A stretch of 64,000 bases of DNA from a virus (Duplodnaviria; Heunggongvirae; Uroviricota; Caudoviricetes), in the IMG/VR virus record IMGVR_UViG_638275430_000001, positions 22,274-86,273 of that record. One strand, given 5' to 3'. The notes below the pieces were generated by a model, which saw nothing but the letters and a program-made list of their open reading frames with translations, did not search any database and was not told the DNA's origin. Shown one piece after another: positions 16,900-33,387 of the stretch. Position 1 is the first letter of the stretch. Each line of letters starts with the position of its first letter. Both the position numbers and the translations under genes were made by a program.

Positions 16900-17145
16900 C
16901 TATTTAGAACGAACATAAACATTTTCTCGCTTCACAATTCCACGAACTAGCTCCAATCGAGCTAACATTTGATTCGGATGTAACGGCGACGTGATATATA
17001 ACGCATCACTTTCCATATCAACGAGTTTTCGATACGCTTTCAGAGCGTTTTCGTGTTGAATATAGAGTTCTTCAACTGCGGCTTTATTGTAGCCGCAGAC
17101 TTCCCAACGATTTAGAGTTTCCGGTAAAATCACGATTAACCCCAC
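16900..17145 (-). CDS. Hypothetical protein (81 aa)
   Basis: Same-strand ORF overlapping the upstream gene by 10 nt. Confidence 0.45.
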   Translation of the reverse strand: MGLIVILPETLNRWEVCGYNKAAVEELYIQHENALKAYRKLVDMESDALYITSPLHPNQMLARLELVRGIVKRENVYVRSK

Positions 17146-17531
17146 AAAGTCAGAAGTTCGGTATCTTCTTTTTTCAAGCTGTCAACGATTGTTTTCAGCT
17201 CCGCATAACGAATCGAACAACGACCTTTGTTGACATCGATACCAGCAGCAGTCAGAACAGACAGTGGAACATGACGAACATTGCCGAATTGAACATCGTT
17301 TGTGTTCTTTTCTTTACCATAATCAACACCTAGTTCGATGTGAGTAATGTCAGCAAAGAATACCTTGTTACCTTTGTCAACGATTGCAATATGTTTCATC
17401 TTGGTAATGCGTTCGGCGGCACCGATAAAACCAATTGCTCGTTTCTCTTTCATCATCGTTTCAAAACTCAGACACTCGCCTTGACCGTCTTTATTACGAC
17501 TCGGGATTACTACGATGGTATCATGTTTCAT
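17136..17531 (-). CDS. Hypothetical protein (131 aa)
   Basis: Consensus early promoter/leader upstream (..agttgacg..gctgaggaataaatcATG). Confidence 0.6.
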   Translation of the reverse strand: MKHDTIVVIPSRNKDGQGECLSFETMMKEKRAIGFIGAAERITKMKHIAIVDKGNKVFFADITHIELGVDYGKEKNTNDVQFGNVRHVPLSVLTAAGIDVNKGRCSIRYAELKTIVDSLKKEDTELLTLWG

Positions 17532-17599
17532 GATTTATTCCTCAGCTTTGTTTCGATAGAGCCAATCTTAACATGATGGCTCTGGGCGTCAACTACTTT

Positions 17600-17686
17600 T
17601 TAGAAAATTGCTGGAGCAACAACGCTGAACAAAATTCCCAGGATTGCAACAACAACAATCAGTTCAATCAGAGTAAAGCCTTTCAT
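17600..17686 (-). CDS. 28-aa hydrophobic peptide with prepilin-like N-terminus (MKGFTLIELIVVVAILGILFSVVAPAIF). Not in the ORF track (<60 aa)
   Basis: ATG overlaps the upstream TGA (ATGA). GAGGA SD 7 nt upstream. Type IV pilin class III signal-like GFTLIEL motif. Confidence 0.45.
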   Translation of the reverse strand: MKGFTLIELIVVVAILGILFSVVAPAIF

Positions 17687-17946
17687 TTCAGATCCTCACA
17701 TTGAGTAATAAGTTTAAAACCTTTGTTTTGCAGTGCATGTCGGATACTTGCATATGCATCAAACTTGCTAACAGCTTGTACCATGTACTTGTCAGTTTCG
17801 AATTCAGATACATCCAACTCTGGGAAAACCTCAGAGAAACGACGCAATGCAACGGTACTTGCGTGTGCTGCCATACCGTCGATGTTAGCAGACACAAAGG
17901 CAATATTGCGCTTGTGATTAACAAAACTTCTGACTTGATGTTCCAT
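17683..17946 (-). CDS. Hypothetical protein (87 aa; start refined to MEHQVRS)
   Basis: Consensus leader cgagaggaatacaccATG. The track start at 17976 lies in the promoter region. Confidence 0.55.
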   Translation of the reverse strand: MEHQVRSFVNHKRNIAFVSANIDGMAAHASTVALRRFSEVFPELDVSEFETDKYMVQAVSKFDAYASIRHALQNKGFKLITQCEDLK

Positions 17947-18016
17947 GGTGTATTCCTCTCGTTTCGATGTGTCCATATTAGCAGATCAATACCATGTGTC
18001 AACTCTTTTGGAAAAT

Positions 18017-18040
18017 AAAAATCCGCCCGAAGGCGGATTC
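18017..18040 (-). terminator. C(UUCG)G hairpin terminator (atccgcc-ttcg-ggcggat) fused to the early promoter UP element
   Basis: aaaaatccgcccgaaggcggatt. Same stem at 31165. Confidence 0.65.
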
Positions 18041-18042
18041 TA

Positions 18043-19173
18043 TTAAACTTCTAATTCTTCAAAGAATGTTTCATCGAGAGTCGAATCAACTTGTCCGATC
18101 AGATAGCTAGACAACTCAGCCTCTTGGGCAGCGACTTGAACGGAATCGCTGTTAAGCCACTTGCGAATCCACGGCAGAGGGTGTTTCATACCGATGTTCA
18201 GTTCTTCTGGCGCGGGGAGACCAGCAGATCGCATACGGCTTACAGTCAGATAATCGATGTAATCCAACATACTGGACAGACTCAAGCCGGGAATAGTCAC
18301 ATTACCAAGCAAGTCTCTTGCCCATTCTTTCTCTTGTTCAGCAACTTCCAAGAAGATTTGCACCGCTTTATGTTCGAGGCGTTTGGCGATCTCGTACATT
18401 TCGGAATCATCTTCTGCATTCTGCCAAGCACGAATCAGATACTGGGTGCCTTTCAGGTGAAGCTGTTCATCCCGCGCAATCAGACGCATGATCTTAGCGT
18501 TGCCTTCCATGATACCACGCTCACCGAATGAGAACGTGCAAGCAAAGCTAACATAGAAACGAATCGCTTCCAAAGCGTTTACGGCGTGCATTGCGAGATA
18601 TAACGCTTCTTTTACTTTAGTCAGTTGTGCAACTCGCAACTCCGGAGAGAATACAGATTGAGTCAACAGATCATAAGTTTTCAGCTCTTTGATCAGATTG
18701 TCATAATACTGAGTTACAGAAGTGGCACGTGCCATAATCTTACTGTCAAGCAGAATCCTATCAAACACAGCAGACGGATCAACATAGAGATTCCGCATGA
18801 TGTGGGTATAAGAACGGCTATGAATTGTCTCACTGAAACTCCATGTGGTGATCCAAGTTTCAAGCGCGACATCAGATACGATTGGCAAGAATACCAAGTT
18901 AGGTGCGCGACCTTGTACCGAGTCAAGCAGACTTTGATATTTCAAGTTTTGAGTGAAAACATGTTGTTCGGCTTCACTCAGTTGATTATAGTCGATTGCA
19001 TCCTTAGACAAATCCACTTCTTCGGGACGCCAGAAAAATGAAAGTTGCTTTTCTGTAAGCTTATCAATTGCCGGATGTTTTACTGTTTCATATCGAGCCA
19101 ATCCCATTGCTTCGCCCAAGAACAGAGGCGCTTTCATATGATCAACTACATTTTTATTAAATACGGTATCCAT
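18043..19173 (-). CDS. nrdB: Ribonucleotide reductase class Ia beta subunit NrdB (intact, no intron)
   Basis: 376 aa. Di-iron ligand region and tyrosyl-radical region; E. coli-like length. Confidence 0.9.
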   Translation of the reverse strand: MDTVFNKNVVDHMKAPLFLGEAMGLARYETVKHPAIDKLTEKQLSFFWRPEEVDLSKDAIDYNQLSEAEQHVFTQNLKYQSLLDSVQGRAPNLVFLPIVSDVALETWITTWSFSETIHSRSYTHIMRNLYVDPSAVFDRILLDSKIMARATSVTQYYDNLIKELKTYDLLTQSVFSPELRVAQLTKVKEALYLAMHAVNALEAIRFYVSFACTFSFGERGIMEGNAKIMRLIARDEQLHLKGTQYLIRAWQNAEDDSEMYEIAKRLEHKAVQIFLEVAEQEKEWARDLLGNVTIPGLSLSSMLDYIDYLTVSRMRSAGLPAPEELNIGMKHPLPWIRKWLNSDSVQVAAQEAELSSYLIGQVDSTLDETFFEELEV

Positions 19174-19190
19174 TTTTATTCCTTGTTAAA

Positions 19191-19206
19191 AGGGGACGAA
19201 TCCCCT
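19191..19206 (-). terminator. Hairpin aggggat-tcg-tcccct + UUUU between nrdA-b and nrdB (terminator/attenuator)
   Basis: aaaaggggacgaatccccttatc. Confidence 0.45.
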
Positions 19207-19215
19207 TATCAGTTA

Positions 19216-20187
19216 TCAGACCTTACAAACATCACAAGAAGAATCTTGTTCTTCGGTACCATCGGCACCATCGCGAGTGTTCGAGTAATAAAGAGACTTA
19301 ACGCCGTGTTTCTGTGCTCTTGAAATATCTTTCAGAACAACTTTCATCGGGATCTTCTCACCCGGATACACAGCAGGATCATAATAAGTATTTGCACTAA
19401 TCATTTGATCCACAAACTTCTGCATGATAGCTACAATGTCCAAGTAACCCTTCATGCCGTGTTTGGTCATCTGCCAAGCTGTCTCATACTCGCTACCAAG
19501 CATGTCTACCTCAGGCACTAGCTGATTAAAGACACCATCTTTCGATTGCTTGGTGCTCACTAGGCCGCGCGGTGGCTCGATACCGTTTGTGCTGTTGGTG
19601 ATCTGTGAACTACTCTCACAAGGCATAAATGCGCTTAGAGTATCGTTTCGCAGGCCGTGCTGTTTGATCTCAGCTCGCAGCCATTCCCAATCCATTTTCA
19701 GATCATTCGGAACGATATTGTCAACGTTCTTATTGTACCAGTCAATCGGTAACAGTCCATCAGCCCATTTTGTCTTATGATGCCACTCGTTTGCACCGCG
19801 TTCTTTCGCCAGCTCCATAGACGCTACCAAGTTCGCAAACTGCATCATTTCCATGGTGCGGTGAACAAGCTTGTTTGCATTTCCGCTAGAGTAGTTAACA
19901 AAATTCTTCGCCAAGAAATAAGCAAAGTTTGTTACACCCATGCCGAGTGCGCGACGCTTCTTGGCTGCCAGTGCTTGAACGACGGGATAATCCTGATAGT
20001 CAAGCAAGTTATCGAGTGCGCGAACAGCAGCGCGAGCAACGTTTAGGAAGTCTTCATAACCCTCAATTGCGCCGAGATTATACGCCGCTAAAGTGCAAAG
20101 GCTTATTTCCGAAACATCTACCTCAATTTCTACCGTGGTATATTCTTCATCTTCGTATACTTCGTAAATTCTTTCATGTTCGATCAT
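19216..20187 (-). CDS. nrdA: Ribonucleotide reductase alpha subunit, C-terminal fragment (NrdA-b)
   Basis: 323 aa. Begins with a 26-aa extension, then EISLCTLAAYNLGA, collinear with E. coli NrdA from ~aa 455 to the C-terminal CxxC tail (SSCDVCKV). Confidence 0.85.
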   Translation of the reverse strand: MIEHERIYEVYEDEEYTTVEIEVDVSEISLCTLAAYNLGAIEGYEDFLNVARAAVRALDNLLDYQDYPVVQALAAKKRRALGMGVTNFAYFLAKNFVNYSSGNANKLVHRTMEMMQFANLVASMELAKERGANEWHHKTKWADGLLPIDWYNKNVDNIVPNDLKMDWEWLRAEIKQHGLRNDTLSAFMPCESSSQITNSTNGIEPPRGLVSTKQSKDGVFNQLVPEVDMLGSEYETAWQMTKHGMKGYLDIVAIMQKFVDQMISANTYYDPAVYPGEKIPMKVVLKDISRAQKHGVKSLYYSNTRDGADGTEEQDSSCDVCKV

Positions 20188-20887
20188 TTTCTCTAAATCT
20201 CCTATTGAGAATAAATCTGGAGATTCCGGTTTCTTTCATGGCAATGCCTATGCTTGGATATTCAATGCCGCCAATGACAATTTTTATACCGTTCGGTGCC
20301 GGCTTTCCTAAATTAGTTGCTCTTGACTTAGGCACATATTCTTTATTGTGTTCATCATCACCAAGCTTATAGAGTTTCCACCCATGGTGATTACTTCTTT
20401 TACCGCGACAAACTGCACTCATTGTACTGGGATTTAATCCGTGCTTCAAGCAGAAATCTTTTAACCCAGAAACAATGTGTTCTTCTCCCGTAGGAGACAC
20501 GAATCGCCATAGATAAGAAAGCTTTTCTCTTTGAACATCAGACATTGGCTTTCCTTTGTTCGGAGCAATACTTCCAGTTTTGACTTCGGATAAAGCCTTA
20601 GCGAGTTTGACACGATTTGATTCATGCATATATGCATAAACTCTACTATGTTCTTTATTTCCAACTCGCATCATGTTATAAGCGAATATCAGTTTGTTGC
20701 TTTTATAAATCTTAGTCAATAAATGATGAACAACATAGTGTGCTTTAGCAGTTAGATATACCAAATTGTCGTCACTATCATCACCTCCCATACATCTTGG
20801 GATAATATGATGTTTCTCTTTGTAACCGGAGATCTCCGAATTTTTAAATTTGTTGATAATTAAGTCGTGTATTCTCTTATAATTCAT
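20174..20887 (-). CDS. HNH homing endonuclease (MobE-like) inserted between the nrdA fragments
   Basis: HHIIPRCMGGDDSDDNLVYLTAKAHYVVH HNH motif. 237 aa. SD agagggtgcaaatATG. Confidence 0.8.
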   Translation of the reverse strand: MNYKRIHDLIINKFKNSEISGYKEKHHIIPRCMGGDDSDDNLVYLTAKAHYVVHHLLTKIYKSNKLIFAYNMMRVGNKEHSRVYAYMHESNRVKLAKALSEVKTGSIAPNKGKPMSDVQREKLSYLWRFVSPTGEEHIVSGLKDFCLKHGLNPSTMSAVCRGKRSNHHGWKLYKLGDDEHNKEYVPKSRATNLGKPAPNGIKIVIGGIEYPSIGIAMKETGISRFILNRRFRENDRT

Positions 20888-20931
20888 ATTTGCACCCTCT
20901 TAACGTACACGACTATTTAGAGGGTGCAAAT
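20888..20931 (-). promoter_or_regulatory. 13-bp perfect inverted repeat hairpin sequestering the HNH gene SD, with an embedded late-type promoter CTAAATAG in the loop
   Basis: atttgcaccctct ... agagggtgcaaat. The loop contains the reverse complement of ctatttag. Confidence 0.55.
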
Positions 20932-20933
20932 TT

Positions 20934-22355
20934 TTAGTATCTCAGAGACTTATATTGATCCGTCGCTACCATAAGTTTGAACTTATCAACTTCGGACTTT
21001 TTGACTTTAAACAACATCTTTTCTTTCTTTCCCATAGGGACTGTCGGCAGCGCGATTTCGATGCACAGATTACCCATACGAATAGGCTCTTTGTACGGAG
21101 TAGCCGAGTTAACGTTATCAACGAACATCGGATAAATGCGACCGGTGCCAGTTCTTTCTTGTGCGAACAGATTGAACAACTCGGAGGCTTTGATACGCTT
21201 CTTACGACACCAAGGCTCGTTTTCCAGCATTTCGTACAGCTCTTTGAACTTCACCGGATCTTTATAAAAGAGATCGTAAAGCTCGCCGTTTTGAACGTCT
21301 GGACTAAAGAGCGTGATATAGTCGTCATTTTTCAGACGCTCGAAAAACAGCTTGTTGATTTGGATACCGTAGTCAAGCTGGCGAATTCGATTTTCTTCCA
21401 CGCCCTTGTTGTTTTTCAGAACAAGGATTTTTTCAACTTCAAGATGCCACATTGGATAGTAAAGAGTAGCAGCGCCACCGCGTACACCACCCTGTGAGCA
21501 ACTTTTTACCGCAGTCTGGAAATATTTCCAGAACGGAATAATACCAGTGTGGCGAACTTCACCACTTCGAATGCGAGAACCTTCGGCACGAATAGCGCCA
21601 CCGTTGATACCGATACCAGCGCGTTTGCTAATATAGTCAACGATTGAACTTGCGGTAGCGTTAATGCTATCGAGTTCGTCGCCGCTTTCGATCTTCACGC
21701 ATGAGCTAAACTGGCGAGTCGGGGTTCGAACACCAGCAAGAATTGGCGTCGGTAGACTCAGTTTGCCCAACGATGTTACGTCATAAAAGTTTTTAACTTT
21801 AGCGATTCTATCTGTTTTTTCGTCTTGATGCAAGCACATTGCAACAAGCATATACAGAATTTGAGGTGTTTCGTAAATCTGATCGGTACTACGATCTTTC
21901 GCCAGGTACTTCTCTTTAAACTGCATTACGCCAGCATAAGCAAGATCAAAATCGCGATCATGCTTGATATAGGCATTCAGTTCATTGAATTCATCATCTG
22001 TCCATTTGATGGCAAGATCTTTATCATAGATGCCGTCTTGTACCAAGTCAAGTGTGTGTCGTTTCAGATGAATCGGGTCAAACTGATTGTAAACGTCTTT
22101 GCGAATCGCATACATTTGCAGACGAGCAGCGACGTATTGATAATCGGATTGTTCAATAGAGATACGATCTGCCGCAAATTTAATTGCCAGCTTCTGAATG
22201 TTCTTTGTGCTCATGCCGTCGGTGATAGAAGGCATAATACCGTTCAGGATTTCATTCGGATCGATTCGAGTTCCAGCAGTAGCGAATCCCAGAATTTTCA
22301 ACAGCTTTTTCGGCTCAAAATTCTCGGTTATCCCACTTGATTTTCTTACTAACAT
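20934..22355 (-). CDS. nrdA: Ribonucleotide reductase alpha subunit, N-terminal fragment (NrdA-a); ATP-cone plus catalytic core to ..CIEIALPT, then a 34-aa tail
   Basis: Collinear with NrdA aa 1 to ~440. Start MLVRKSSGITENFEP chosen (ATG 22353-22355). The track start 22397 has no SD and lies inside the promoter -10. Confidence 0.8.
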   Translation of the reverse strand: MLVRKSSGITENFEPKKLLKILGFATAGTRIDPNEILNGIMPSITDGMSTKNIQKLAIKFAADRISIEQSDYQYVAARLQMYAIRKDVYNQFDPIHLKRHTLDLVQDGIYDKDLAIKWTDDEFNELNAYIKHDRDFDLAYAGVMQFKEKYLAKDRSTDQIYETPQILYMLVAMCLHQDEKTDRIAKVKNFYDVTSLGKLSLPTPILAGVRTPTRQFSSCVKIESGDELDSINATASSIVDYISKRAGIGINGGAIRAEGSRIRSGEVRHTGIIPFWKYFQTAVKSCSQGGVRGGAATLYYPMWHLEVEKILVLKNNKGVEENRIRQLDYGIQINKLFFERLKNDDYITLFSPDVQNGELYDLFYKDPVKFKELYEMLENEPWCRKKRIKASELFNLFAQERTGTGRIYPMFVDNVNSATPYKEPIRMGNLCIEIALPTVPMGKKEKMLFKVKKSEVDKFKLMVATDQYKSLRY

Positions 22356-22397
22356 GTTACCCCGTTGTGTTATGTGTTGGAGAGTTTCATTATACAT

Positions 22398-22440
22398 CAG
22401 TCACAAAGAATGTAAACAACTTACATGTTTACAGAGTTAA
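22398..22440 (-). promoter_or_regulatory. T4-type early promoter for nrdA (GTTTACA-N16-TATAAT) with dyad tgtaaaca..tgtttaca over the -35
   Basis: Minus strand reads ctctGTAAACAtgtaagttGTTTACAttctttgtgactgatgTATAATgaaa. Confidence 0.5.
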
Positions 22441-22443
22441 AAA

Positions 22444-22461
22444 ATCCCGCATCAGCGGGAT
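22444..22461 (-). terminator. Hairpin atcccgc-tgat-gcgggat + U6 terminator
   Basis: aaaaaatcccgcatcagcgggatc. Confidence 0.7.
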
Positions 22462-22934
22462 CCCTTGTAAAGCAAAACATCTTGATAAATCGGAGTCAAA
22501 ATGCTCAACCAGTGATTGGCTAGTTCTATCCGAGCTTGATAATAAGCTACTTGATCTTCTTTATAGTAGCCATTTTTCTCACTATGATATTGATCGGTAC
22601 AATCTCCAGTGAGATAGTTTAGCTTAATTACATGTCCGAGATTACCGGACCAATATTTATAGTATTTCAAGAACTCGACATTTGCCATCTTCGTCCTGAT
22701 TTGAAAGCAAAGTCCACGGCGAATATGATCGCGATTGATCTTACATTCGATGATATCATTTAAAGTCTTGATATCGTTCGCGAGTTCTTTGATATCAGCA
22801 ACACCATTCCAGAAGATGATGGACTTTCGTTGACCACTGGAATATTTGGCATTCAGTCTCGCTTGAGTTGCCGCAAGTTCAGCCAGTCGCTTGGCTCGGT
22901 TCGGCATCAAAAAATCAATAATTGTTTTCAGCAT
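22452..22934 (-). CDS. Paralog family member A (160 aa); one copy of the novel ~100-aa 'RHW' domain (..INRDHIRRGLC..KYWSG..GH...YYQARIELANHWL)
   Basis: Tandem array of homologous genes. Shared motifs GRITR.EC..GLC, KYWSG, ARLELARHWL. Confidence 0.6.
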   Translation of the reverse strand: MLKTIIDFLMPNRAKRLAELAATQARLNAKYSSGQRKSIIFWNGVADIKELANDIKTLNDIIECKINRDHIRRGLCFQIRTKMANVEFLKYYKYWSGNLGHVIKLNYLTGDCTDQYHSEKNGYYKEDQVAYYQARIELANHWLSILTPIYQDVLLYKGSR

Positions 22935-22936
22935 GA

Positions 22937-23407
22937 TTACACATTTTGAGTGAAATGATTGTCAACGAAAGTCATTACATCAAGCCAGTGACGAGCCAGT
23001 TCCAAACGAGCTTCGTAAAACTTAACGTTCTTTTCGTAATAGCGTTCTTCGGCATATTGCATTTCGGGAGAATGGCCATCTTTGATGTCAATCAAAAACA
23101 GTTGTCCACACGTTTCTTTGTCCCAGTGACGATACATCGCCATAATTGGATCAGTCCGCAGAATACCAGCAACTTCGAACCCAACATGATAACAGACTCC
23201 ACAGGCAATTCTATTTCGCGCCAGTGTTCGATCTGTGATCTTATACAAAGTTTTCATTGCATCGGCGTATCGTTCTGGCTTTTCGATTCGCAATTTAAGA
23301 AGATCATAATACTTTGTCAAGTTAGCATCGTCCAGAAACTTGAGTTTCAGACGCTCGTTCTTGCTCATGAAAACGGATTTGATTTTTGCTCGCAGAACAG
23401 TAAACAT
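22937..23407 (-). CDS. Paralog family member B (156 aa, more divergent; ..YEARLELARHWL)
   Basis: C-terminal FYEARLELARHWLDV. Consensus early promoter/leader. Confidence 0.6.
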   Translation of the reverse strand: MFTVLRAKIKSVFMSKNERLKLKFLDDANLTKYYDLLKLRIEKPERYADAMKTLYKITDRTLARNRIACGVCYHVGFEVAGILRTDPIMAMYRHWDKETCGQLFLIDIKDGHSPEMQYAEERYYEKNVKFYEARLELARHWLDVMTFVDNHFTQNV

Positions 23408-23463
23408 GATATAACCCTCTCTATAAGATAATGCCAGTATACGCTACTGGCATTAGGTGTCAA

Positions 23464-24327
23464 TTAGTTTTTAGCGATAGCCATCACATTTTCAATGACT
23501 TTCAGCCAATGCCGAGCAAGTTCCAGACGCGCTTCATAGTATGCGGTATCATACTTCATCGAACAATAAACTTCGTCCTTGAATTGCTTGATTGCTTGGT
23601 TCCGCTTGTGATCTTCGATTGTGTAGTGTTTCGCACGAGGATCAGGCATAAAGTTCTTGACTTCATCGGTTTCAAGCAGGATGATGTAACCTTTCCAACC
23701 ACTCCAGAATTTGTAGTCTTTAAGGATATACTCGCCATTCAGCTTGACTTTAATCATTTCACACAGACCTTCTTTGAGCTGATCGCGTGTGATTTTACCG
23801 ATAATAACATCGCGCAGAATTTCGCGAGATTCTTCCCATTCAGAACGATTAAAAACACAATGCCGCACCAGATCATTCATATGAGCCTGACGTTCAACAG
23901 CATCGCAATACTCAGATTGCAGTTTCAGAATATAACGCAGCCAGTGACGAGCCAGTTCCAGACGAGCTTCCCAGTATTCATCATTACCTTCGGACTCTTC
24001 ATCTGCTTCTTGATGAAACTGTGCGATGGCTTCATTCAACGGATCGTCCATTTCATCGGGATTACCAATCAGAATGCTGTGACCTTCCCAGCCGCTCCAG
24101 AACTTGTATCCGTTCAAGATCTTTTCATTGCACAAATCTACACCACCGGCCTTTGAGCCGACAATACGACATATGCCAATCTTGCATTCTTCGCGGGTGA
24201 TACGTCCGTCGATGATATCATTCAGTTTCGCTTTGGATACGTCGAAACGTTCTTTGTTCTTGACGTAATATTTTACGTCTTCGGAAACAGTCGGGTCATT
24301 GATGATTCGGGTTTGCAGTTCGTTCAT
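23464..24327 (-). CDS. Paralog family member C (287 aa) with two tandem copies of the domain
   Basis: GRITREECKIGICRIV..YKFWSGWEGH..YWEARLELARHWL, then GKITRDQLKEGLCEMI..YKFWSGWKGY..YYEARLELARHWL. Confidence 0.65.
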   Translation of the reverse strand: MNELQTRIINDPTVSEDVKYYVKNKERFDVSKAKLNDIIDGRITREECKIGICRIVGSKAGGVDLCNEKILNGYKFWSGWEGHSILIGNPDEMDDPLNEAIAQFHQEADEESEGNDEYWEARLELARHWLRYILKLQSEYCDAVERQAHMNDLVRHCVFNRSEWEESREILRDVIIGKITRDQLKEGLCEMIKVKLNGEYILKDYKFWSGWKGYIILLETDEVKNFMPDPRAKHYTIEDHKRNQAIKQFKDEVYCSMKYDTAYYEARLELARHWLKVIENVMAIAKN

Positions 24328-24387
24328 GATTTATTCCTCAGTTGTTTGATGTGGACATCCTATCATGTCCACATTTGCTGTCAATCG

Positions 24388-24819
24388 TTATTGCAAAACA
24401 ATTTTAGTTTCGATGAAATTGATCCAGTGACGAGCAAGTTCCAGGCGAGCTTCCCAGTACGGATCATTGTCACCGTATTCAGACTCTTCCAAATCTTCTT
24501 CTTCATGAAACTGTTCGATTGCTTGAGGCAGATGATCGTGATACCGACGGGACTCTTCGGTAGTTTCACCGACATACACACAATAGCCTCGCATACCACT
24601 CCAATATTTGTAGCCTTCGAAGACGGAATGATCTGTCAACATATCGCAGTTAATCAGATTGCACAAGCCACCGCGGCACTCATATCGAGTAATGCGACCT
24701 TCTACAACATCTTTGAGGATGTAATACGCTTTCATAATATTTGCATTCATAAACATGATTATTTCCTTAGCAACTAGATACGATAAAGCCAGTCTACGCG
24801 AGACTGGCTTAGGTGTCAA
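24388..24819 (-). CDS. Paralog family member D (143 aa)
   Basis: GRITRYECRGGLCNLI..YKYWSGMRGY..YWEARLELARHWI. Confidence 0.6.
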   Translation of the reverse strand: MTPKPVSRRLALSYLVAKEIIMFMNANIMKAYYILKDVVEGRITRYECRGGLCNLINCDMLTDHSVFEGYKYWSGMRGYCVYVGETTEESRRYHDHLPQAIEQFHEEEDLEESEYGDNDPYWEARLELARHWINFIETKIVLQ

Positions 24820-24820
24820 A

Positions 24821-25315
24821 TCAATTATGAAGTTTTTTCATCTTTTTTGGCATTTCTTTGTTGAACACTGTGCAGAGTTCAGCCTTAGTCATGCCGTCAT
24901 TGTACGCGAAACCGTTTGATTGTAACTCAGCAATCATCGCCGGTTTATCTTGACGAGCGAAACGCTTTTTCAAATCTGGCAACAGTTTCGGGTGAATATC
25001 GTTTTCTTTGGTATCTTGTTCGAGATACACGATCAAAGTTTTTAGTTGTGTGATGTAATCGACGTTCCTAGACGCCAGACCGGAGCGCATAAACTCATGT
25101 CTAACCATACCTTCAAACTTGTTACAAAAGCAACATAGCAAACCGCGCACACGGCCAGCTTGCGGACCATTCAATTCGTGATCGTGATCAAGATGATTTT
25201 TGTTAATCTCTTTGTCAAGTTCGCGTTTGCATAGAGGGCAAATGCCATTTTGTGCATGGTACAGTTTTTCTTTTGCTGCATCATAGGTTTTGGGAGTCAA
25301 GATCATTAGAGTCAT
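24821..25315 (-). CDS. 49: Endonuclease VII (Holliday junction resolvase), gp49
   Basis: Collinear with T4 gp49: ..YDAQNG.C.LC.REL.....NHLDHDHELNGP.AG.VRGLLC..CN..EG...H.F.RSGL. 164 aa. Confidence 0.85.
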   Translation of the reverse strand: MTLMILTPKTYDAAKEKLYHAQNGICPLCKRELDKEINKNHLDHDHELNGPQAGRVRGLLCCFCNKFEGMVRHEFMRSGLASRNVDYITQLKTLIVYLEQDTKENDIHPKLLPDLKKRFARQDKPAMIAELQSNGFAYNDGMTKAELCTVFNKEMPKKMKKLHN

Positions 25316-25343
25316 TCCATTTTGATAGTATGACTCTATTTAG
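25307..25343 (-). promoter_or_regulatory. Hairpin (tagagtca-N15-tgactcta) occluding the gene 49 start codon, with late-type promoter CTAAATAG overlapping the 5' arm
   Basis: Minus strand reads aaCTAAATAGAGTCAtactatcaaaatggaATGACTCTAatg. Parallels T4 gene 49 early-hairpin/late-promoter control. Confidence 0.55.
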
Positions 25344-25346
25344 TTG

Positions 25347-25916
25347 TTATGCTTCCCACTTCAATTTTGCAGTAATATCAATGTGTGTTGCATCGATACG
25401 TTTCATCGAACCGTCATCATGTCTATACCAATCACCAGCATAGTTGTAGATGTAAACGCGACCAGTAGTGCCGACAAACATCATAGCATCAGACATCGCA
25501 TTGGATGCAAAACTGCTATATTGGAAATACCCGCCCGTAATTTGAGCGCCGGCGATAAAACCAACAAAGCGGACTGTTAGACGCTCGGGTTTCCCGTCTG
25601 TGCGCGATATGCGCAACGGGAATTGACGACCAATAGCGATCTCAGATGTGCTTTGTTTGCGACCGGTAACCCAGAGCTTATCGCATTGGATGAAAATGCC
25701 AGTGGATTCAACATATTGACCGTTAGCCCACTTATCACCCATAACGTGTTCATACTCGGCAATCAGTTTCAGATCGTTCATGAAAACATGAAATCTGGCG
25801 ATTTTAGTCTCTGGATTGAAATCAATCAGAGTCATGTCCCTGAATTTCAGTCGAACAACATCACCAGGATTAAGCTCTTTCTTTTCGGCTTTTTCTTTAC
25901 TTTCCAGAATAAACAT
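25347..25916 (-). CDS. Hypothetical protein (189 aa)
   Basis: TAATG overlap with the upstream gene. Confidence 0.5.
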   Translation of the reverse strand: MFILESKEKAEKKELNPGDVVRLKFRDMTLIDFNPETKIARFHVFMNDLKLIAEYEHVMGDKWANGQYVESTGIFIQCDKLWVTGRKQSTSEIAIGRQFPLRISRTDGKPERLTVRFVGFIAGAQITGGYFQYSSFASNAMSDAMMFVGTTGRVYIYNYAGDWYRHDDGSMKRIDATHIDITAKLKWEA

Positions 25917-26437
25917 TAGTCATATCTCCATGGCAGATCGTACAGTTGTTCGAATTGACCGAATGATGTAGTGTAGAGTTGAACGGCTTCATAATCACCA
26001 TCATCAACAGCGATAGCATAATGTGCCATGCCTTTGTTGTCAATCAAAATCAAACAAGGATCTTCTTCCGCGATGCCAATTCGCACACTCTCGACTTTAG
26101 AGCTGGTTCGATCCCACAACAGTGTGATTCCGGTTTCGGCAACAACTTTCATTTCATCAACGAAATCGCCAACATTAATCACACTGCGATTGGTATAGAA
26201 AAGCTCGCCGTTTTCGATTGTATAATCGGACATATTGATTAGATACATCGGACGACCAATCGGGTCTTTCGCATTGTGCCAGCGTCCATTTTCAAACACA
26301 AGTTCGGAATAAGCAATATCTCCGATTGTGAGTTTGATAGAGTTTGATGTTACCTCAGTCAAAACACCTTGCAATCCTTTCACTCGAACAACATTGTCGA
26401 TTTCAACTTTTTTCTTGTCTTCCGAATAACGAAACAT
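25916..26437 (-). CDS. Hypothetical protein (173 aa)
   Basis: SD cgaggttaatATG. Confidence 0.5.
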   Translation of the reverse strand: MFRYSEDKKKVEIDNVVRVKGLQGVLTEVTSNSIKLTIGDIAYSELVFENGRWHNAKDPIGRPMYLINMSDYTIENGELFYTNRSVINVGDFVDEMKVVAETGITLLWDRTSSKVESVRIGIAEEDPCLILIDNKGMAHYAIAVDDGDYEAVQLYTTSFGQFEQLYDLPWRYD

Positions 26438-26438
26438 A

Positions 26439-26996
26439 TTAACCTCGGTATTGATTGATCACACATATGTGGGTATCGTTGACGAACATACTACCATTTG
26501 AGTCCGGTTCCACAAAGTAAAGTGTTTGGCCGGTGCCTACAATAACGCGCTCTTTGCCGTCTTCGTTTTTCACCACAATAGCATTTTTCTCACAACGACT
26601 CGGGTTAAAAATAATCTGATCTTTGTTGATTACAAACGACCCCACGGCAACAACTACACCCTTGTAATAGGTAGACTCGACGCAATAATCAATCTCTTCA
26701 CCAGCAGCGATTGGCTGCTTTACACCGTAATCATACAGCATACCAAGACTCATGCCATAGCGAGAGTTCATACCGCTGCCGGTGATTGTGTATCCGCGAT
26801 CTGGGTTATAACAGCGATACCGATATGATTTGGAACTCAGTTGATAGAAATCGAGTTCAACCTTTGCGCCAGTGTCGGTATCAGTCAGGTAAACTTTCTT
26901 GCCGTCGATTTTCTCGATAGTCAGGAGTTCGCCGCGATTGAGATTGATAACACTACCAATACCGAGTCGAATCGGATTAACAATTTTACAAATCAT
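26439..26996 (-). CDS. Hypothetical protein (185 aa)
   Basis: Same-strand operon. Confidence 0.5.
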   Translation of the reverse strand: MICKIVNPIRLGIGSVINLNRGELLTIEKIDGKKVYLTDTDTGAKVELDFYQLSSKSYRYRCYNPDRGYTITGSGMNSRYGMSLGMLYDYGVKQPIAAGEEIDYCVESTYYKGVVVAVGSFVINKDQIIFNPSRCEKNAIVVKNEDGKERVIVGTGQTLYFVEPDSNGSMFVNDTHICVINQYRG

Positions 26997-27166
26997 TTAT
27001 TCATCCTCATTTCACGTTTAAGCCGTTCGATACGCTGATTAACAGCGATACCGTCAGGAGTACACACAGAAGCACCGGAAGCGGTATGGATCTGCATAGC
27101 ATAAGCATTGATTTTGATCATCGGCTTGTACTTCATACGATTCATAAGGCGTTTCAGGTAGTTCAT
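26993..27166 (-). CDS. Hypothetical small protein (57 aa; start refined to MNYLKRL)
   Basis: SD ggagaacaccATG. Promoter TTGACA-N16-TATACT upstream. Confidence 0.45.
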   Translation of the reverse strand: MNYLKRLMNRMKYKPMIKINAYAMQIHTASGASVCTPDGIAVNQRIERLKREMRMNK

Positions 27167-27254
27167 GGTGTTCTCCGTGGTTGATAGCAAGAGTATAGCG
27201 ATTGGATTCCTACTGTCAAACACTATTTTCGTTCGAATAGTAATCTACTCCAGA

Positions 27255-27365
27255 AAGTCGCGCCAGCGACTGCGAAGCTAACTCATTGATTACCTTAAGG
27301 AAGACAAAATAGATTCTCATTAAAGATCTATAAGAGATTTTATTTTGTCTTTGTTCGCTACGCTC
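27255..27365. repeat. Copy 2 of the ~110-bp intergenic repeat (reverse complement of copy 1), inside a 300-nt intergenic region
   Basis: See copy 1. Flanks about 80% identical with 6-nt indels. Confidence 0.8.
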
Positions 27366-27466
27366 ACAAGTGCTGGCGCACGTTACCCGCGATTCCATTG
27401 CGTTCTAATACATTCGTATCAGTATAACGTAGGAATCGCCGGTACGTTGATACCAGAGCTTTTGGC

Positions 27467-27928
27467 TTAATATCTGAGTGTGGTAGGTGATAGTCCAATT
27501 ATACCACGATTGAAATCCAGCTCGATTCTATACCAGTTACCACGCTCTGTTTTCATATGGCTATCTCTTGTGACATCACAGTTCGGACTAGCCCATTGCA
27601 AAGTGTTTTTGATACCATCTGGAGTTCGATCTGAACTCATAACAACGATAACCCGTTTGCCTTCATTGACAATGCAACCACTGCTAATGAAATCAGCATT
27701 GAATCGACTTTCGGTAACATTAAATGGAGTCTGCACAAAACGCGCTGGAACGATTACCAAGTCGTTCCCTAGATAAACTGATATGTCTCCACTGTCCACG
27801 TCAAGCATCGCGTCCAATTTCGTTCCACACACGTAGGCGTGATATAACTCGATTACTTGATTCGCAGTCATTTCTGGGCGTTCTTTGTGTGCCCTGAACA
27901 TAGACATATTAACAATTTGAACTTTCAT
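27467..27928 (-). CDS. Hypothetical protein (153 aa)
   Basis: SD aggagaaataaATG. UUCG terminator upstream. Confidence 0.55.
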   Translation of the reverse strand: MKVQIVNMSMFRAHKERPEMTANQVIELYHAYVCGTKLDAMLDVDSGDISVYLGNDLVIVPARFVQTPFNVTESRFNADFISSGCIVNEGKRVIVVMSSDRTPDGIKNTLQWASPNCDVTRDSHMKTERGNWYRIELDFNRGIIGLSPTTLRY

Positions 27929-27947
27929 TTATTTCTCCTATGAAAAA

Positions 27948-27966
27948 GGGCCCGAAGGCCCTTTGT
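27948..27966 (-). terminator. C(UUCG)G hairpin (gggcc-ttcg-ggccc) + U-run
   Basis: aaaaagggcccgaaggccctttg. Confidence 0.6.
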
Positions 27967-28209
27967 TTAGATTGAATGTAACTTGATATTTCGAGTGGTA
28001 CATAGATGCAAATCGCAAATAGCGTCTACTTTAGTGCCGTCACTCAACACGATATCAAAAGAGTTGTATACGTTGGCACAAATGATTGTTACGTGTTCAC
28101 CGTATACTTGCGCTTTCAACAGCTTACCGAACACTTCGGCACCGTAAGCGAATTCCCACTCGGATGCATCTACCATGTCCAGCTTGATGATTTTTGCTTT
28201 AACATCCAT
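27967..28209 (-). CDS. Hypothetical protein (80 aa)
   Basis: Consensus leader caactgaggaatacatcATG. Confidence 0.55.
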   Translation of the reverse strand: MDVKAKIIKLDMVDASEWEFAYGAEVFGKLLKAQVYGEHVTIICANVYNSFDIVLSDGTKVDAICDLHLCTTRNIKLHSI

Positions 28210-28263
28210 GATGTATTCCTCAGTTGTTTGGCTTCAATGTGGACATAATATCAGGTTCGAAAA

Positions 28264-28623
28264 TCAGTGCAAGCACTTTTTCATGAATTCATAATGTTTT
28301 TGTTTGTTGAAGGTATAGCGAAATTCAGGACGAGCCACGATACCTTCAAACAACACCGGAGATTTTGCAATCACGGTAACATCATATCCGACCAACTCAC
28401 GCTTGCAATGAACATTCGGTACCTTGATTTCGGATTCACGATTGATCGGAACGTACATCGGAACACCATAAACAACTTGCACAGCAAACACTTGCACCGT
28501 TTTCTTGATCATCGCCGGAATAGTGAAAATCTCTTTGATCTTCACGCCCTCGATATGGCCGTTTGCGATCATCTGCTGATATACTGCCATTGACGCTTTC
28601 ATGTCTTCTTTCTTGATAAACAT
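28264..28623 (-). CDS. Hypothetical protein (119 aa)
   Basis: Early promoter/leader upstream. Confidence 0.5.
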   Translation of the reverse strand: MFIKKEDMKASMAVYQQMIANGHIEGVKIKEIFTIPAMIKKTVQVFAVQVVYGVPMYVPINRESEIKVPNVHCKRELVGYDVTVIAKSPVLFEGIVARPEFRYTFNKQKHYEFMKKCLH

Positions 28624-28633
28624 AGTATTTTCC

Positions 28634-28861
28634 TTAAATCAGTTCGATGAATTTAGATGGGATATCTTCAAACAGAATACAGTTCAGCTCAAAGCTATAA
28701 CCGTTTTCTGTCTCTTCTATTTCAAACTCGGTCTTTTGTTCAGCATGATAGAAGAAAACATGGAGACCGTGAATACCAACAAGTTCATAGAGAAAATCAC
28801 TTTCATCGGATGAACAATAGGCATCAATAGCTATGCCGAAATCTTTGATACGTGCTTTCAT
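28634..28861 (-). CDS. Hypothetical protein (75 aa)
   Basis: Same-strand ORF. Confidence 0.45.
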   Translation of the reverse strand: MKARIKDFGIAIDAYCSSDESDFLYELVGIHGLHVFFYHAEQKTEFEIEETENGYSFELNCILFEDIPSKFIELI

Positions 28862-29244
28862 TAACGACCGTCCTTACAAGAAATGAAACCGAAGATACCG
28901 AGTTTAGAGCCCTGGGACATTGCATCTTGCCACTTGCTTACATGACCACGAACATACTTAGTAGCAGCTTTCCAACCGTTGGCTTTCAGAATCTCTCCGG
29001 TTTCCATGTTCACAAACCAAACAACACTACGGGTAGATTGATTCGCATAGTCGGCTCGGAAGATTCTGGCATTCTTTTTGCCGAACTCAATGCCGTACAC
29101 ATAGCGAGAAATATTACCGTCTACCAGACGCTGGGCATGGTCTTGCTCATAACGCTTGAAGAAATCTGGAACACTGATATCAAAATAAACGTGATCCGAA
29201 AACTCGTTCATTTCTTTTACCATTTGTTCGATTGCTGCTTTCAT
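28861..29244 (-). CDS. Hypothetical protein (127 aa)
   Basis: Consensus leader aactgaggaattcataATG. Confidence 0.55.
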   Translation of the reverse strand: MKAAIEQMVKEMNEFSDHVYFDISVPDFFKRYEQDHAQRLVDGNISRYVYGIEFGKKNARIFRADYANQSTRSVVWFVNMETGEILKANGWKAATKYVRGHVSKWQDAMSQGSKLGIFGFISCKDGR

Positions 29245-29314
29245 TATGAATTCCTCAGTTCTTGTTTCGATGTGGACATATTATCAGGTCCACACCCAGC
29301 GTCAAGCAATTTTC

Positions 29315-29914
29315 TTAATTATTTTCGTCTGTATTTTCGTACAGATGATTGATTTTAGAAACATCAAATTGGTGATCGATTTCATCAAACACTTTTTGTA
29401 CCATTTCTTTGATTTCGGCATTGTGAAGTGGACAAGTCCGATCAACTCGACGGAACGGATCTCCGCGACGGTGTTCCGGACAAGTGCAGTGTGGCAGATT
29501 GTATTTGTGGAAAGACGAATCGATATCAAAACCCCAGAGAGATTGCAATTCGTATTCGATGTCCTTTAGCCATGCAAGATGTTTGGCAATACGCTGTTTC
29601 TGTATCACATTACCAACAGTACCTGGACTATAAAGTTTCTCGTTTTGAAGTTGCTTTACATGGATATCCCGATAGTGTTGCAACTGATCGATCTTGAGAA
29701 TCGTTTCATCCGACAGATTTCGAGAGATAGCCAGATCCAGATTAACGGTAGTGTGACGCTGTTTGATAGCGCGTTCCCATTGTTCAGCCATAAAAGCAAT
29801 GATCTTTTGTGCATTCGGCCGGTCTTTTGCTTCGAACACGCCGAGAAGTTTCAGCGCGTCTTTCTGTGCCAGAAAGATACGGAGTTTATCCGCATCAGTT
29901 ATCAGTTTTTTCAT
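29315..29914 (-). CDS. Hypothetical protein (199 aa; start refined to MKKLITDAD). C-terminal Cys/His-rich (HCTCPEH..CPLH)
   Basis: SD tggagtttgtcaATG. Consensus promoter upstream. Confidence 0.5.
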   Translation of the reverse strand: MKKLITDADKLRIFLAQKDALKLLGVFEAKDRPNAQKIIAFMAEQWERAIKQRHTTVNLDLAISRNLSDETILKIDQLQHYRDIHVKQLQNEKLYSPGTVGNVIQKQRIAKHLAWLKDIEYELQSLWGFDIDSSFHKYNLPHCTCPEHRRGDPFRRVDRTCPLHNAEIKEMVQKVFDEIDHQFDVSKINHLYENTDENN

Positions 29915-30137
29915 TGACAAACTCCATAAATTCTTTTTCGTAGCCACGATTGATTGCGAACGATACCACATCTTCACCGCCAGCTATCATGTGACGACGA
30001 ACAGATTCCAAGAAGTAATCGAACTCACTGAAACCATGTGAACTTTGCATTTTCAGATGCCAGTTGATCTTTTGATCCAATTCTTTCAGATTGATTGAAT
30101 GATGTTTCCAATGAAAAACTCGACTTTGATTTTTCAT
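29895..30137 (-). CDS. Hypothetical protein (~80 aa; start MKNQSRV)
   Basis: SD acggagtcgttATG. Confidence 0.4.
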   Translation of the reverse strand: MKNQSRVFHWKHHSINLKELDQKINWHLKMQSSHGFSEFDYFLESVRRHMIAGGEDVVSFAINRGYEKEFMEFVNEKTDN

Positions 30138-30191
30138 AACGACTCCGTTTTGTATCTGGGACCAATATAACATGGTCCCAGATAGAGTCAA

Positions 30192-31073
30192 TCAATTTTT
30201 ACCAACATACCAAGCGAATACGCTATGAAATGCGGAGCTTGCACTCTTACCGCCACGAGCTTCGTATTCGGCAATGAATTTCACGCGATCACGGATACCT
30301 TCTTCCCACAGAACATTAGCCAGTTTGGACGGACGATGACGAACAATTTCACCACTTGGTGCAGCATAACGCTTTTTACCGTCTCCCGTATCAACTACTT
30401 GGGCAGCTACTTTCTTGCCAACGACTTTAGCCGGAACTTTGATCTCGACTTTGTTTTGTTTGACTTCTACCTTCTGGGTTACAACGGTAACAGTCGGAGC
30501 AGCTTCACCCTTGCGAGTCGGTACATAAGTCAGCATGGATTTATCTTGCGGGCCAACATAATCGAACGGCTTGATTGGGTGTTTGCCATTGCGAGTGCGA
30601 TAAACGTGGCCTTTCTGAATGTTATCATGAACTTTCTTGTTAACAACGACTTTCTGACCAGCAACACCGTAAACGTGTTGGTTGACAGGTACTTCCAGAT
30701 CGTGATAAGTCTTACCGCTACCACCCATCATTTTGTGAATATACTGCCAACGAGCGTCATGTCCACTTTTACCTCGTTGTACATAATCAACAATATGTGC
30801 AACTTCGTGACTTACGGTTTCGTCAAGCAGATGCCACCAAGCTTTCTCGCTCATGATCATCATGTTAACGTTGAAATTCAGCTCATACTTGCGATTGAAG
30901 CTATAGCCTTGCATCATTGCGCGACCAGCAGAGCGAGCGCGAAGAGTGAATTTTACTGCCAGATTCTTACCAATCACGAGGTCAACACCGAACAGTTCGT
31001 TGGCTTTTTTAACTTCGATTTCTACCCGGGCTTTGAGTGCTGCGATTGCTTGATCTTTCAGATTCAAAGTCAT
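30192..31073 (-). CDS. SprT-like zinc metallopeptidase-domain protein (HEVAH...H) with Lys/Val-rich C-terminal tail
   Basis: 293 aa. Motif TVSHEVAHIVDYVQRGKSGHDARW. Start refined to MTLNLKD using the conserved leader cactgaggaaaacatcATG. Confidence 0.6.
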   Translation of the reverse strand: MTLNLKDQAIAALKARVEIEVKKANELFGVDLVIGKNLAVKFTLRARSAGRAMMQGYSFNRKYELNFNVNMMIMSEKAWWHLLDETVSHEVAHIVDYVQRGKSGHDARWQYIHKMMGGSGKTYHDLEVPVNQHVYGVAGQKVVVNKKVHDNIQKGHVYRTRNGKHPIKPFDYVGPQDKSMLTYVPTRKGEAAPTVTVVTQKVEVKQNKVEIKVPAKVVGKKVAAQVVDTGDGKKRYAAPSGEIVRHRPSKLANVLWEEGIRDRVKFIAEYEARGGKSASSAFHSVFAWYVGKN

Positions 31074-31164
31074 GATGTTTTCCTCAGTGCATTTCATTGA
31101 TTGGTTTCGATGTGTCCATAATAACAGGCAGATCCCAAGCGTCAACAATTTTTTGGAAATAAAA

Positions 31165-31186
31165 ATCCGCCCGAAGGCGGATCATC
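31165..31186 (-). terminator. C(UUCG)G hairpin terminator fused to the downstream early promoter (PeSL-like)
   Basis: aaaaatccgcccgaaggcggatca. Confidence 0.65.
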
Positions 31187-31478
31187 ATTTCTTTGTTGCT
31201 AGTCTTAGCAAATGTCTGAGCTGGGCACTGTCAATATTCGTTTTGATTTGCTCGGCGAGATCTGCTGGATTTGAATCCGGTAGCGCATCAGCATAAGCTT
31301 GATAAACATCGTCAGCACTATCAAACCCACGATATCGCTTGATCCGATTTCTGGTGATTGACTGCACAAGATACGATTCAAACTGATCGCGATAGATGCC
31401 AGATTTCACCAACATTCGATCAATAAAAGCGGCAATGTGATAAAGAACATACAACAAGACAAATTGAACGTGTTTCAT
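31185..31478 (-). CDS. Small membrane protein (97 aa, N-terminal TM)
   Basis: SD aaggagaaatATG. Downstream of the SPFH gene. Confidence 0.5.
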   Translation of the reverse strand: MKHVQFVLLYVLYHIAAFIDRMLVKSGIYRDQFESYLVQSITRNRIKRYRGFDSADDVYQAYADALPDSNPADLAEQIKTNIDSAQLRHLLRLATKK

Positions 31479-31497
31479 ATTTCTCCTTAAAAGAAAA

Positions 31498-31517
31498 GAG
31501 GGCTTTCGCCCTCTCTT
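31498..31517 (-). terminator. Hairpin gagggc-gaaa-gccctc + U-run
   Basis: aaagagggctttcgccctctc. Confidence 0.55.
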
Positions 31518-31519
31518 GA

Positions 31520-32467: not shown

Positions 32468-32811
32468 TAAACATTCCTTTTATATTCTCCCATAACATCT
32501 TGATAATTTTCGATGTTAAAAGCTGGGAGAGAGCAGCTTAGATTAGAATCACAGAAGTGATTCACCAGTTGATCGATAACACTGTCAGTAAGACGGAAGT
32601 TATCGGCTTCATAAGTTTCCCAGGCATCACGTATCATTTGTTCGGTGACTGAAAAACAGAAATTGTTAACGCCATACACTTTGATTTCGATTTCTTTGTT
32701 ATCGAACAGTGCAATCAGATTTTGCACATTCGGGCTAGTGACCATGTTTGCGCTAGTTGCGTTATAGATACCACGAGCATTAATAACAGCGTTTACAGTA
32801 ACAAAGTGCAT
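32467..32811 (-). CDS. Hypothetical protein (114 aa)
   Basis: Consensus leader caatgaggaaaacatcATG. Dyad hairpin promoter. Confidence 0.55.
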   Translation of the reverse strand: MHFVTVNAVINARGIYNATSANMVTSPNVQNLIALFDNKEIEIKVYGVNNFCFSVTEQMIRDAWETYEADNFRLTDSVIDQLVNHFCDSNLSCSLPAFNIENYQDVMGEYKRNV

Positions 32812-32881
32812 GATGTTTTCCTCATTGATTTGATAGAGCCATTATCGCATGGCTCTGGGCGATAGTCAACAACTTTTTTAA

Positions 32882-33319: not shown

Positions 33320-33387
33320 GATTATTTCCTCTCGTTTCGATGTAGTTAGTTTAACAGGTCACACATTGTTGTCAACGACTTTTTGAG

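Follow-up and report, generated by a model that had tools for sequence, protein, structure and literature searches.

The gene for the alpha subunit of ribonucleotide reductase (RNR), nrdA, is split in two by a homing endonuclease gene, mobE, in the 64,000-nt stretch of viral DNA analyzed here (the window; IMG/VR record IMGVR_UViG_638275430_000001). The locus is almost certainly the nrdA-a/mobE/nrdA-b "genes-in-pieces" operon of Aeromonas phage Aeh1, an identification that none of the observations contradicts. It is therefore already known, a rediscovery of a well-characterized case and not a new one, having been annotated since 2003 and experimentally dissected between 2007 and 2011. The primary papers on it are reportedly those of Friedrich et al. 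(2007, PNAS) and of Gibb and Edgell (2007 and 2009, J Bacteriol). Aeh1 is the model case of a selfish endonuclease that cuts an essential gene through its active site harmlessly, the damage being repaired without RNA splicing or protein splicing. Comparison with other phages and with metagenomes makes it quite probable that the interrupting unit, consisting of a tail, a hairpin over a ribosome-binding site (RBS), mobE, and a second tail, is an old, self-contained mobile cassette that homes into one nrdA loop and was acquired ready-made by Aeh1.

Identification and gene organization of the split nrdA locus

The window corresponds to positions 22274..86273 of Aeh1 (AY266303.2 / NC_005260.1), plus strand. 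A megablast search of the phage collection gave 100.0% identity to Aeh1 over window positions 19000..22600 (3601 nt), and two blocks of 25000 nt, window 1-25000 and 39001-64000, are 100% identical to Aeh1 22274..47273 and 61274..86273, respectively. An earlier note, made from the letters of this DNA, had stated that the arrangement mirrors that of Aeh1. The architecture it described holds, but the locus does not mirror that of Aeh1, since the window is Aeh1 itself. The GenBank annotation of Aeh1 lists nrdA-A, mobE ("H-N-H family"), and nrdA-B at coordinates that coincide with the open reading frames (ORFs) of the window.

The ORF listing of 17000..25000 gives the order nrdA-a, mobE, nrdA-b, and then nrdB on the minus strand, which carries all window features described here. 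The nrdA-a gene (20934..22355) encodes 473 amino acids (aa) from the annotated ATG, namely the N-terminal 438 residues of NrdA and a 35-aa C-terminal tail followed by a stop codon; the longest ORF at this position (20934..22397) would encode 487 aa. The free-standing HNH homing endonuclease gene mobE (20174..20887; 237 aa) overlaps the start of nrdA-b by 14 nt (20174..20187). In turn, nrdA-b (19216..20187; 323 aa) encodes a 26-aa acidic N-terminal tail and the residues equivalent to 448-744 of NrdA. The last gene of the operon is nrdB (18043..19173), which encodes the RNR small subunit as one uninterrupted ORF of 376 aa. Two nrdA ORFs that are collinear with one intact NrdA are thus separated by a free-standing endonuclease ORF. 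The ORF listing, Pfam matches, and local alignments bear out the earlier note in this respect, and it was also right about the 26-aa head of NrdA-b, the resumption of NrdA at EISLCTL, and the intron-less nrdB (one ORF, and no Rfam intron anywhere in the window). The tail that follows ...CIEIALPT, given there as 34 aa, is 35 aa long.

All three NrdA domains score above the Pfam cut-off. NrdA-a contains the ATP-cone (PF03477), the all-alpha domain Ribonuc_red_lgN (PF00317), and positions 1-220 of the 523-position barrel model (PF02867), and NrdA-b contains barrel positions 222-522. The break falls inside the barrel, at 220/222, and because the model is divided between the two proteins in this way, they are collinear with a single NrdA. 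Alignment to intact NrdA, which the earlier note had suggested as a check, gave the same picture for all four phages compared (Ah1, avDM12-TAAL, PX29, and phiAS5, each with an intact 744-aa NrdA): in local alignments, NrdA-a residues 1-441/443 match the same residues of the intact protein, and NrdA-b residues 27-323 match residues 448-744. The junctions were set by local BLAST and codon-register comparison, as a global MAFFT alignment scattered the tail across the C terminus.

The nrdA genes of Ah1 and avDM12-TAAL (both approximately 90% identical at the nucleotide level) served to delimit the whole insert. In Aeh1, 941 nt (20101..21041) stand in place of 36 nt, equal to 12 loop codons (YPVKKDGSGEVA in Ah1). 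DNA homology to intact nrdA ends after codon 438 (window 21042) and restarts at approximately window 20100. The insert has a GC content of 36.5%, compared to 43.8% for the conserved part of nrdA-a and 46.4% for that of nrdA-b. Only approximately 46 nt of it are noncoding, the rest being accounted for by the tails and mobE. From upstream to downstream, the cassette starts with a basic C-terminal extension, followed by the hairpin that hides the RBS, by mobE, and by an acidic N-terminal extension. It is located between ...NLCIEIALPT and LCTL..., in the loop between two adjacent active-site beta-strands, which is where published work places the split of nrdA by mobE in the barrel (PMC3045599).

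The C-terminal tail (VPMGKKEKMLFKVKKSEVDKFKLMVATDQYKSLRY; coding sequence 20937..21041, 35% GC) is 35 aa long, with a pI of 9.9 and a charge of +5.7. NrdA-b's N-terminal tail (MIEHERIYEVYEDEEYTTVEIEVDVS; coding sequence 20110..20187) is 26 aa long, with a pI of 4.05 and a charge of -9.4, and the first 14 nt of its coding sequence overlap the end of mobE. The computed pI values are close to the published ones of 10.4 and 3.8. Each nrdA piece has its own start codon, and nrdA-a has its own stop codon. An AGGAG sequence lies 11 nt upstream of the nrdA-b ATG, inside mobE (20199..20203).

Reassembly of the two NrdA pieces

NrdA-a contains cysteines at positions 174, 219, 286, 383, and 431, and NrdA-b at positions 31, 190, 318, and 321, the last two forming the C-terminal CxxC pair. 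Among these, Cys219 and Cys431 of NrdA-a and Cys31 of NrdA-b match the published numbering of the active site, where they are equivalent to C225, C439, and C462 of the Escherichia coli enzyme (PMC3045599). The two active-site residues of NrdA-a and the one of NrdA-b are thus carried by separate polypeptides (PMC3045599).

Independent translation of the pieces and their noncovalent reassembly into an active enzyme have been shown in published experiments (PMC3045599); the gene anatomy, insert boundaries, tail charges, and hairpin, as well as the lack of intron and intein signatures, were observed in the present analysis. Mass spectrometry of proteins purified from infected cells detected the tail peptides DQYKSLRY and MIEHERIYEVYE (PMC3045599), and published protein data argue against a full-length NrdA polypeptide of about 85 kDa or a spliced nrdA mRNA in such cells. 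The holoenzyme has the composition (alpha-a/alpha-b)2 beta2 and normal specific activity (Crona et al. 2011, PMC3045599, summarizing and extending Friedrich et al. 2007). When both tails are deleted, specific activity falls from 946 to 0.4 U/mg, an approximately 2000-fold loss; heterodimer formation is independent of the tails, and dimerization is tail dependent (PMC3045599). Both the reassembly proposed by the earlier note and its reading of two independently translated polypeptides, and not an intron, had therefore been demonstrated for this very sequence. Overall, the operon is transcribed as one message, with no RNA or protein splicing, and NrdA-a and NrdA-b associate noncovalently to rebuild a single active site from Cys219 and Cys431 of the one and Cys31 of the other.

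Hairpin and regulatory signals of the operon

The 46-nt spacer between nrdA-a and mobE contains an RNA hairpin with a 13-bp stem (20888..20931). The Shine-Dalgarno sequence of mobE lies within its 3' arm, AGAGGGUGCAAAU, whose end directly adjoins the mobE AUG. The folding energy is -20.9 kcal/mol (z of -4.9 to -6.6), and none of 200 shuffled sequences was as stable. Sequestration of the mobE RBS by this hairpin has been reported (Gibb and Edgell 2009, as cited in PMC2988022), and a review by Edgell, Gibb, and Belfort attributes the control of mobE to the RBS-sequestering hairpin together with a late promoter and an RNase E-like site (PMC2988022). On early transcripts, the hairpin holds down MobE translation, a repression shown in published experiments. 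A late-promoter-like motif, TCTAAATA, which resembles the T4-type TATAAATA, is found at the end of the hairpin 5' arm and in the loop (20914..20921); a late transcript starting just downstream of it would lack the 5' arm, leaving the RBS free. The motif fits the published model, in which late transcripts begin inside the hairpin and free the RBS (for the logic, see PMC2988022 and PMC2677866), and from its location we infer the exact position of the late promoter and transcript start.

According to the literature, an early promoter drives the RNR operon (PMC3045599, Figure 5 legend). A consensus scan revealed a sigma-70-like sequence upstream of nrdA-a (TTTACA-16 nt-TATAAT, 11/12; 22389..22416), which is a candidate for this promoter. 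Its -10 hexamer, at approximately 22389..22394, lies downstream of the ATG at 22397, which favors the nrdA-a start at 22355. The same kind of scan identified an intrinsic-terminator-like hairpin of 10 pairs followed by a T run directly after nrdB (18018..18041). Both assignments are consensus matches only.

The MobE endonuclease

MobE matches PHROG 655 ("homing endonuclease") with an E value of 2.7e-45; its Pfam HNH match is below threshold (17.2 bits against a cut-off of 21.4). Residues H27, N41, and H50 are invariant with T4 MobE and form the H-N-H motif. By these sequence features, Aeh1 MobE is an HNH homing endonuclease of the MobE type, and they support, together with the gene coordinates, the earlier identification of a 237-aa HNH endonuclease gene that overlaps the 3' fragment by 14 nt. 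The N-terminal 150 aa are 37% identical to T4 MobE, whereas the C-terminal half is unrelated to that of T4 MobE. This half, comprising residues from about 110 to 237 (20174..20550; e.g., GLKDFCLKHGLNPSTMSAVCRGKRSNHHGWK), is conserved in all nrdA-splitting MobE proteins, and one homologue has a faint I-HmuI NUMOD-like Pfam match. It is presumably a DNA-binding domain that sets a different target, and unrelated C-terminal halves in the split-type and T4 proteins would fit a different DNA target. Scans of IMG/VR and metagenome contigs for close relatives of MobE yielded only proteins that share the HNH N terminus, most of them not encoded beside RNR genes; in two of the loci from these scans (L007 and L021), a T4-like mobE is in an intergenic position.

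The same cassette in T4-like coliphages

A tblastn search of the phage collection with MobE returned a block of T4-like coliphages with 44-48% identity over 95% of the protein. One of these, Escherichia phage HY01 (KF925357.1; locus L006, 1522..4690), carries a complete nrdA-a/mobE/nrdA-b cassette. HY01 NrdA-a is 477 aa long and ends in ...CCEIAIPTNDVNSQQTRLIKIKKSDVAKFYEANPGGIIQSK (L006 1522..2955), MobE is 236 aa long, and NrdA-b is 329 aa long and starts with MNIDYEFVDEFYEDDEYTTIQVIENKGEVGLCTL... (L006 3701..4690), with an 11-nt overlap between mobE and nrdA-b. In HY01, 911 nt take the place of approximately 7 nt of the T4-type loop, while T4 has the intact loop NDVNSPDAEIG and its own mobE between nrdA and nrdB. 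The HY01 and Aeh1 tails are clearly homologous (KMLFKVKKSEVDKF versus TRLIKIKKSDVAKF and VYEDEEYTTVEI versus FYEDDEYTTIQV), and the HY01 tails, with pI values of 9.7 and 4.05, have the same charges as those of Aeh1. No mobE is present between nrdA-b and nrdB of HY01 (51-nt spacer, L006 4690..4742), and its nrdB is uninterrupted (4742..5920). T4 has both an intergenic mobE and an nrdB intron. In the loci examined, split-type and intergenic mobE did not co-occur.

The cassette is contiguous in 33 of the 825 phage records that match the HY01 nrdA region, and the others, including T4, T2, T6, and RB32, have an empty site. Phage vB_EcoM-ZQ3, a Mosigvirus, has a cassette of the HY01 type (locus L026, 1789..4948). 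The cassettes of HY01 and ZQ3 are 99-100% identical, and this extends at 95-100% to approximately 100 bp on either side; the remaining nrdA sequence is 67-84% identical. At the protein level, MobE is 99.6% identical and the NrdA pieces are 86.5% and 93% identical. Since the cassette is nearly identical in a diverged nrdA background, this pattern bears the signature of a recent transfer by homing between a Tequatrovirus (HY01) and a Mosigvirus.

Annotation of the split genes in T4-like coliphages is inconsistent, such that they could pass for pseudogenes. The GenBank record of HY01 lacks annotation for both nrdA pieces (it has no locus tags 0220 and 0218), and those of UFV-AREG1 are labeled nrdA_1 and nrdA_2. 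A survey for the cassette flags T4-like coliphage genomes with such unannotated or pseudogene-like nrdA pieces.

Metagenomic lineages and features shared by six lineages

In a collection of 5.8 billion proteins, four full-length matches to MobE were found, with 49-56% identity; all other matches cover the HNH N terminus only. All four full-length homologues lie between an nrdA-a piece and an nrdA-b piece in assemblies of public sequencing runs (L027-L031). Among the full-length homologues found, split-type MobE is thus strictly associated with split nrdA. Together with Aeh1 and HY01/ZQ3, the metagenomic loci L027, L028/L029, L030, and L031 make up six lineages.

The six lineages share the insertion point, in the loop after ...E-I-A-x-P-T plus five residues. 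The C-terminal tail is basic in all of them (charge +3 to +6; core [FLIY]K[VI]K[KR]x[DE]V[DEA]xF), and the N-terminal tail is acidic (charge -9 to -10; core Y[EY]D[DE]EYTT[VI][EQ]). The end of mobE overlaps or abuts the start of nrdA-b in every lineage, by 8-14 nt in most and by 1 nt in L030. A significantly stable hairpin covers the mobE start in six of six lineages (z of -3.6 to -6.6). The hairpins were folded one by one with shuffle controls, four aligned sequences being too few for covariation statistics. The sequence CCCTAAATA is common to the hairpins of Aeh1, L027, L028, and L031, which differ in their outer stems. The HY01 and L030 hairpins differ from this type; in HY01, the AUG is covered by the stem and the loop contains the Shine-Dalgarno sequence. 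MobE identity between lineages ranges from 41% to 58%, and that of the NrdA cores from 58% to 68%. Such divergence suggests that, HY01 and ZQ3 apart, the cassette is old.

Searches with the tails themselves were less productive. Tail-containing queries of 48 residues gave no match that extends into either tail in IMG/VR, and the first 48 residues of NrdA-b matched only Aeromonas phages by tblastn in the phage collection, a search in which the query was too short and too acidic to recover HY01. When residues 1-50 of NrdA-b were run exhaustively with phmmer against 1.84 billion representatives, there were no matches at E<=0.001, a negative that carries no information.

Alternative explanations for the split gene

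The split could in principle reflect a group I (or II) intron with an intronic homing endonuclease gene, spliced to give a continuous nrdA mRNA. There is precedent for this, as group I introns with endonuclease genes are frequent in the RNR genes of T4-like phages, such as nrdB/I-TevIII and nrdD/I-TevII (PMC2988022, PMC3653736), and T4 nrdB is annotated as joined from two pieces (locus L025). The earlier note had named a search for a group I intron core as a check. When both strands of 18800..22800 were scanned permissively with Rfam, no group I or group II family matched at E<=10, including around mobE, and the whole window gave no match at the gathering score. Moreover, the approximately 46 noncoding nt leave no room for a P3-P9 core, and the mature proteins contain both tails (PMC3045599). 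Taken together, we consider an intron exceedingly improbable. Still less credible is a sequencing or assembly artifact, or a dead pseudogene, in which case the host or the anaerobic NrdD would supply RNR activity. The equivalent pieces do look like pseudogenes in records such as that of HY01, where they are unannotated. However, what interrupts nrdA is not a frameshift but a complete 941-nt cassette whose 237-aa ORF is intact, independently sequenced phages and metagenomes have the same architecture, again with conserved tails and intact ORFs, and the purified Aeh1 enzyme is active at 946 U/mg (PMC3045599).

A split or degenerate intein, with the tails as remnants of N- and C-intein and the pieces ligated by protein trans-splicing, is likewise highly improbable. 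Split-intein halves flanking a free-standing endonuclease gene are known from fractured genes in marine metagenomes, nrdA included; there too, a hairpin precedes the endonuclease gene, which overlaps the gene downstream (PMC2677866). Crona et al. raise the possibility that the tails derive from a degenerate intein (PMC3045599). Against this, the tails measure only 35 and 26 aa, and neither has a Hint or intein Pfam match at E<=10. Across the six lineages, no conserved Cys/Ser opens the C-terminal tail and no His-Asn precedes the downstream junction, so neither Hint blocks nor junction nucleophiles were found. The mature proteins also retain the tails, and the two polypeptides are purified as separate proteins (PMC3045599). 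The absence of ligated full-length NrdA in preparations from infected cells refutes trans-splicing as the present mechanism. An active split intein is thus excluded, and an ancient intein origin of the cassette is possible and compatible with its sequence.

Origin of the cassette and relation to published work

Returning to the cassette as a mobile unit, the presence of homologous cassettes in five or more other phage lineages, all at the same site, suggests that Aeh1 acquired it ready-made, tails included, by homing from another phage. The cassette would then bring along its own means of repairing the damage at the protein level. The first five tail residues of Aeh1, VPMGK, resemble KPMGR of L030 and not YPVKK of the Aeh1 relatives, a likeness suggestive of a short tract of co-conversion from a donor. 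One point weighs against a ready-made acquisition. The nrdA flanks of Aeh1 contain almost no co-conversion tract; codons 424-438 and 451-465 match those of close relatives, and only VPMGK and EIS look foreign. If the proposed acquisition is correct, the published origin of the split, random foreign DNA on which selection acted in place, would give way to a mobile module that was already adapted, and the Aeh1 tails would not have been invented after a one-off transposition, contrary to the proposals of 2007-2011. The six lineages also provide natural sequence variation for working out the function of the tails.

Crona et al. (2011) reported that database searches with the tails were empty and that none of 1200 nrdA sequences was split (PMC3045599). 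Both statements are now out of date. Split nrdA beyond Aeh1 has been mentioned only as "GM, unpublished" (bioRxiv 10.1101/2022.08.31.505936), and our literature search found no fuller account of it. The extension beyond Aeh1 is therefore not wholly new, but as far as we found, there is no published account of the tail motifs, junctions, hairpins, association of the MobE type with split nrdA, or transfer between HY01 and ZQ3. The Aeh1 case is also discussed by Dassa et al. 2009 (PMC2677866) and Dwivedi et al. 2013 (PMC3653736). In the latter, a legend in the section "Split RNR genes in phages" describes Aeh1 nrdA as split "by an intein," and the main text correctly names the mobE homing endonuclease.

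Genes upstream of the operon

Four tandem hypothetical genes directly upstream of nrdA-a (22452..24819, minus strand) are paralogues. Their ORFs (22452..22934, 22937..23407, 23464..24327, and 24388..24819) share motifs such as Y(K/R)(Y/F)WSG(W)xG and YYEARLELARHWL, and the 287-aa paralogue contains the unit twice. None has a match at the Pfam cut-off, the 287-aa protein giving a subthreshold DapH_N match (16.9 versus 27 bits). The copy number of these paralogues varies among Aeh1, Ah1, PX29, and phiAS5.

Comparison with known systems

The locus in the window is identical to the published Aeh1 locus in sequence, gene coordinates, cysteine numbering, tail peptides, and hairpin, with no differences. 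The coliphage and metagenomic cassettes agree with Aeh1 in insertion point, order of elements, and tail cores, and their MobE proteins show 49-58% full-length identity. They differ in the nrdA background of the host phage (58-68% identity) and in the hairpin sequences, and they are known from sequence alone. T4 mobE belongs to the same HNH family and the same operon as Aeh1 mobE. However, the T4 gene is intergenic, T4 nrdA is intact, and the C-terminal halves of the two endonucleases are unrelated.

A closer functional parallel is the T4 mobA element in the topoisomerase gene 39/60, where a related HNH endonuclease splits an essential gene and the products reassemble (PMC3045599; bioRxiv 10.1101/2022.08.31.505936). 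As in Aeh1, the upstream product carries a C-terminal extension and the downstream product an N-terminal extension. The target gene is a different one, and the 50-nt translational bypass of the T4 element has no counterpart in Aeh1 nrdA. The split-intein fractured genes described by Dassa et al. (2009, PMC2677866) resemble the Aeh1 operon in the free-standing endonuclease gene between the halves, the preceding hairpin, and the downstream overlap. In contrast to Aeh1, where there is no intein and the halves stay separate, their halves are rejoined by protein trans-splicing.

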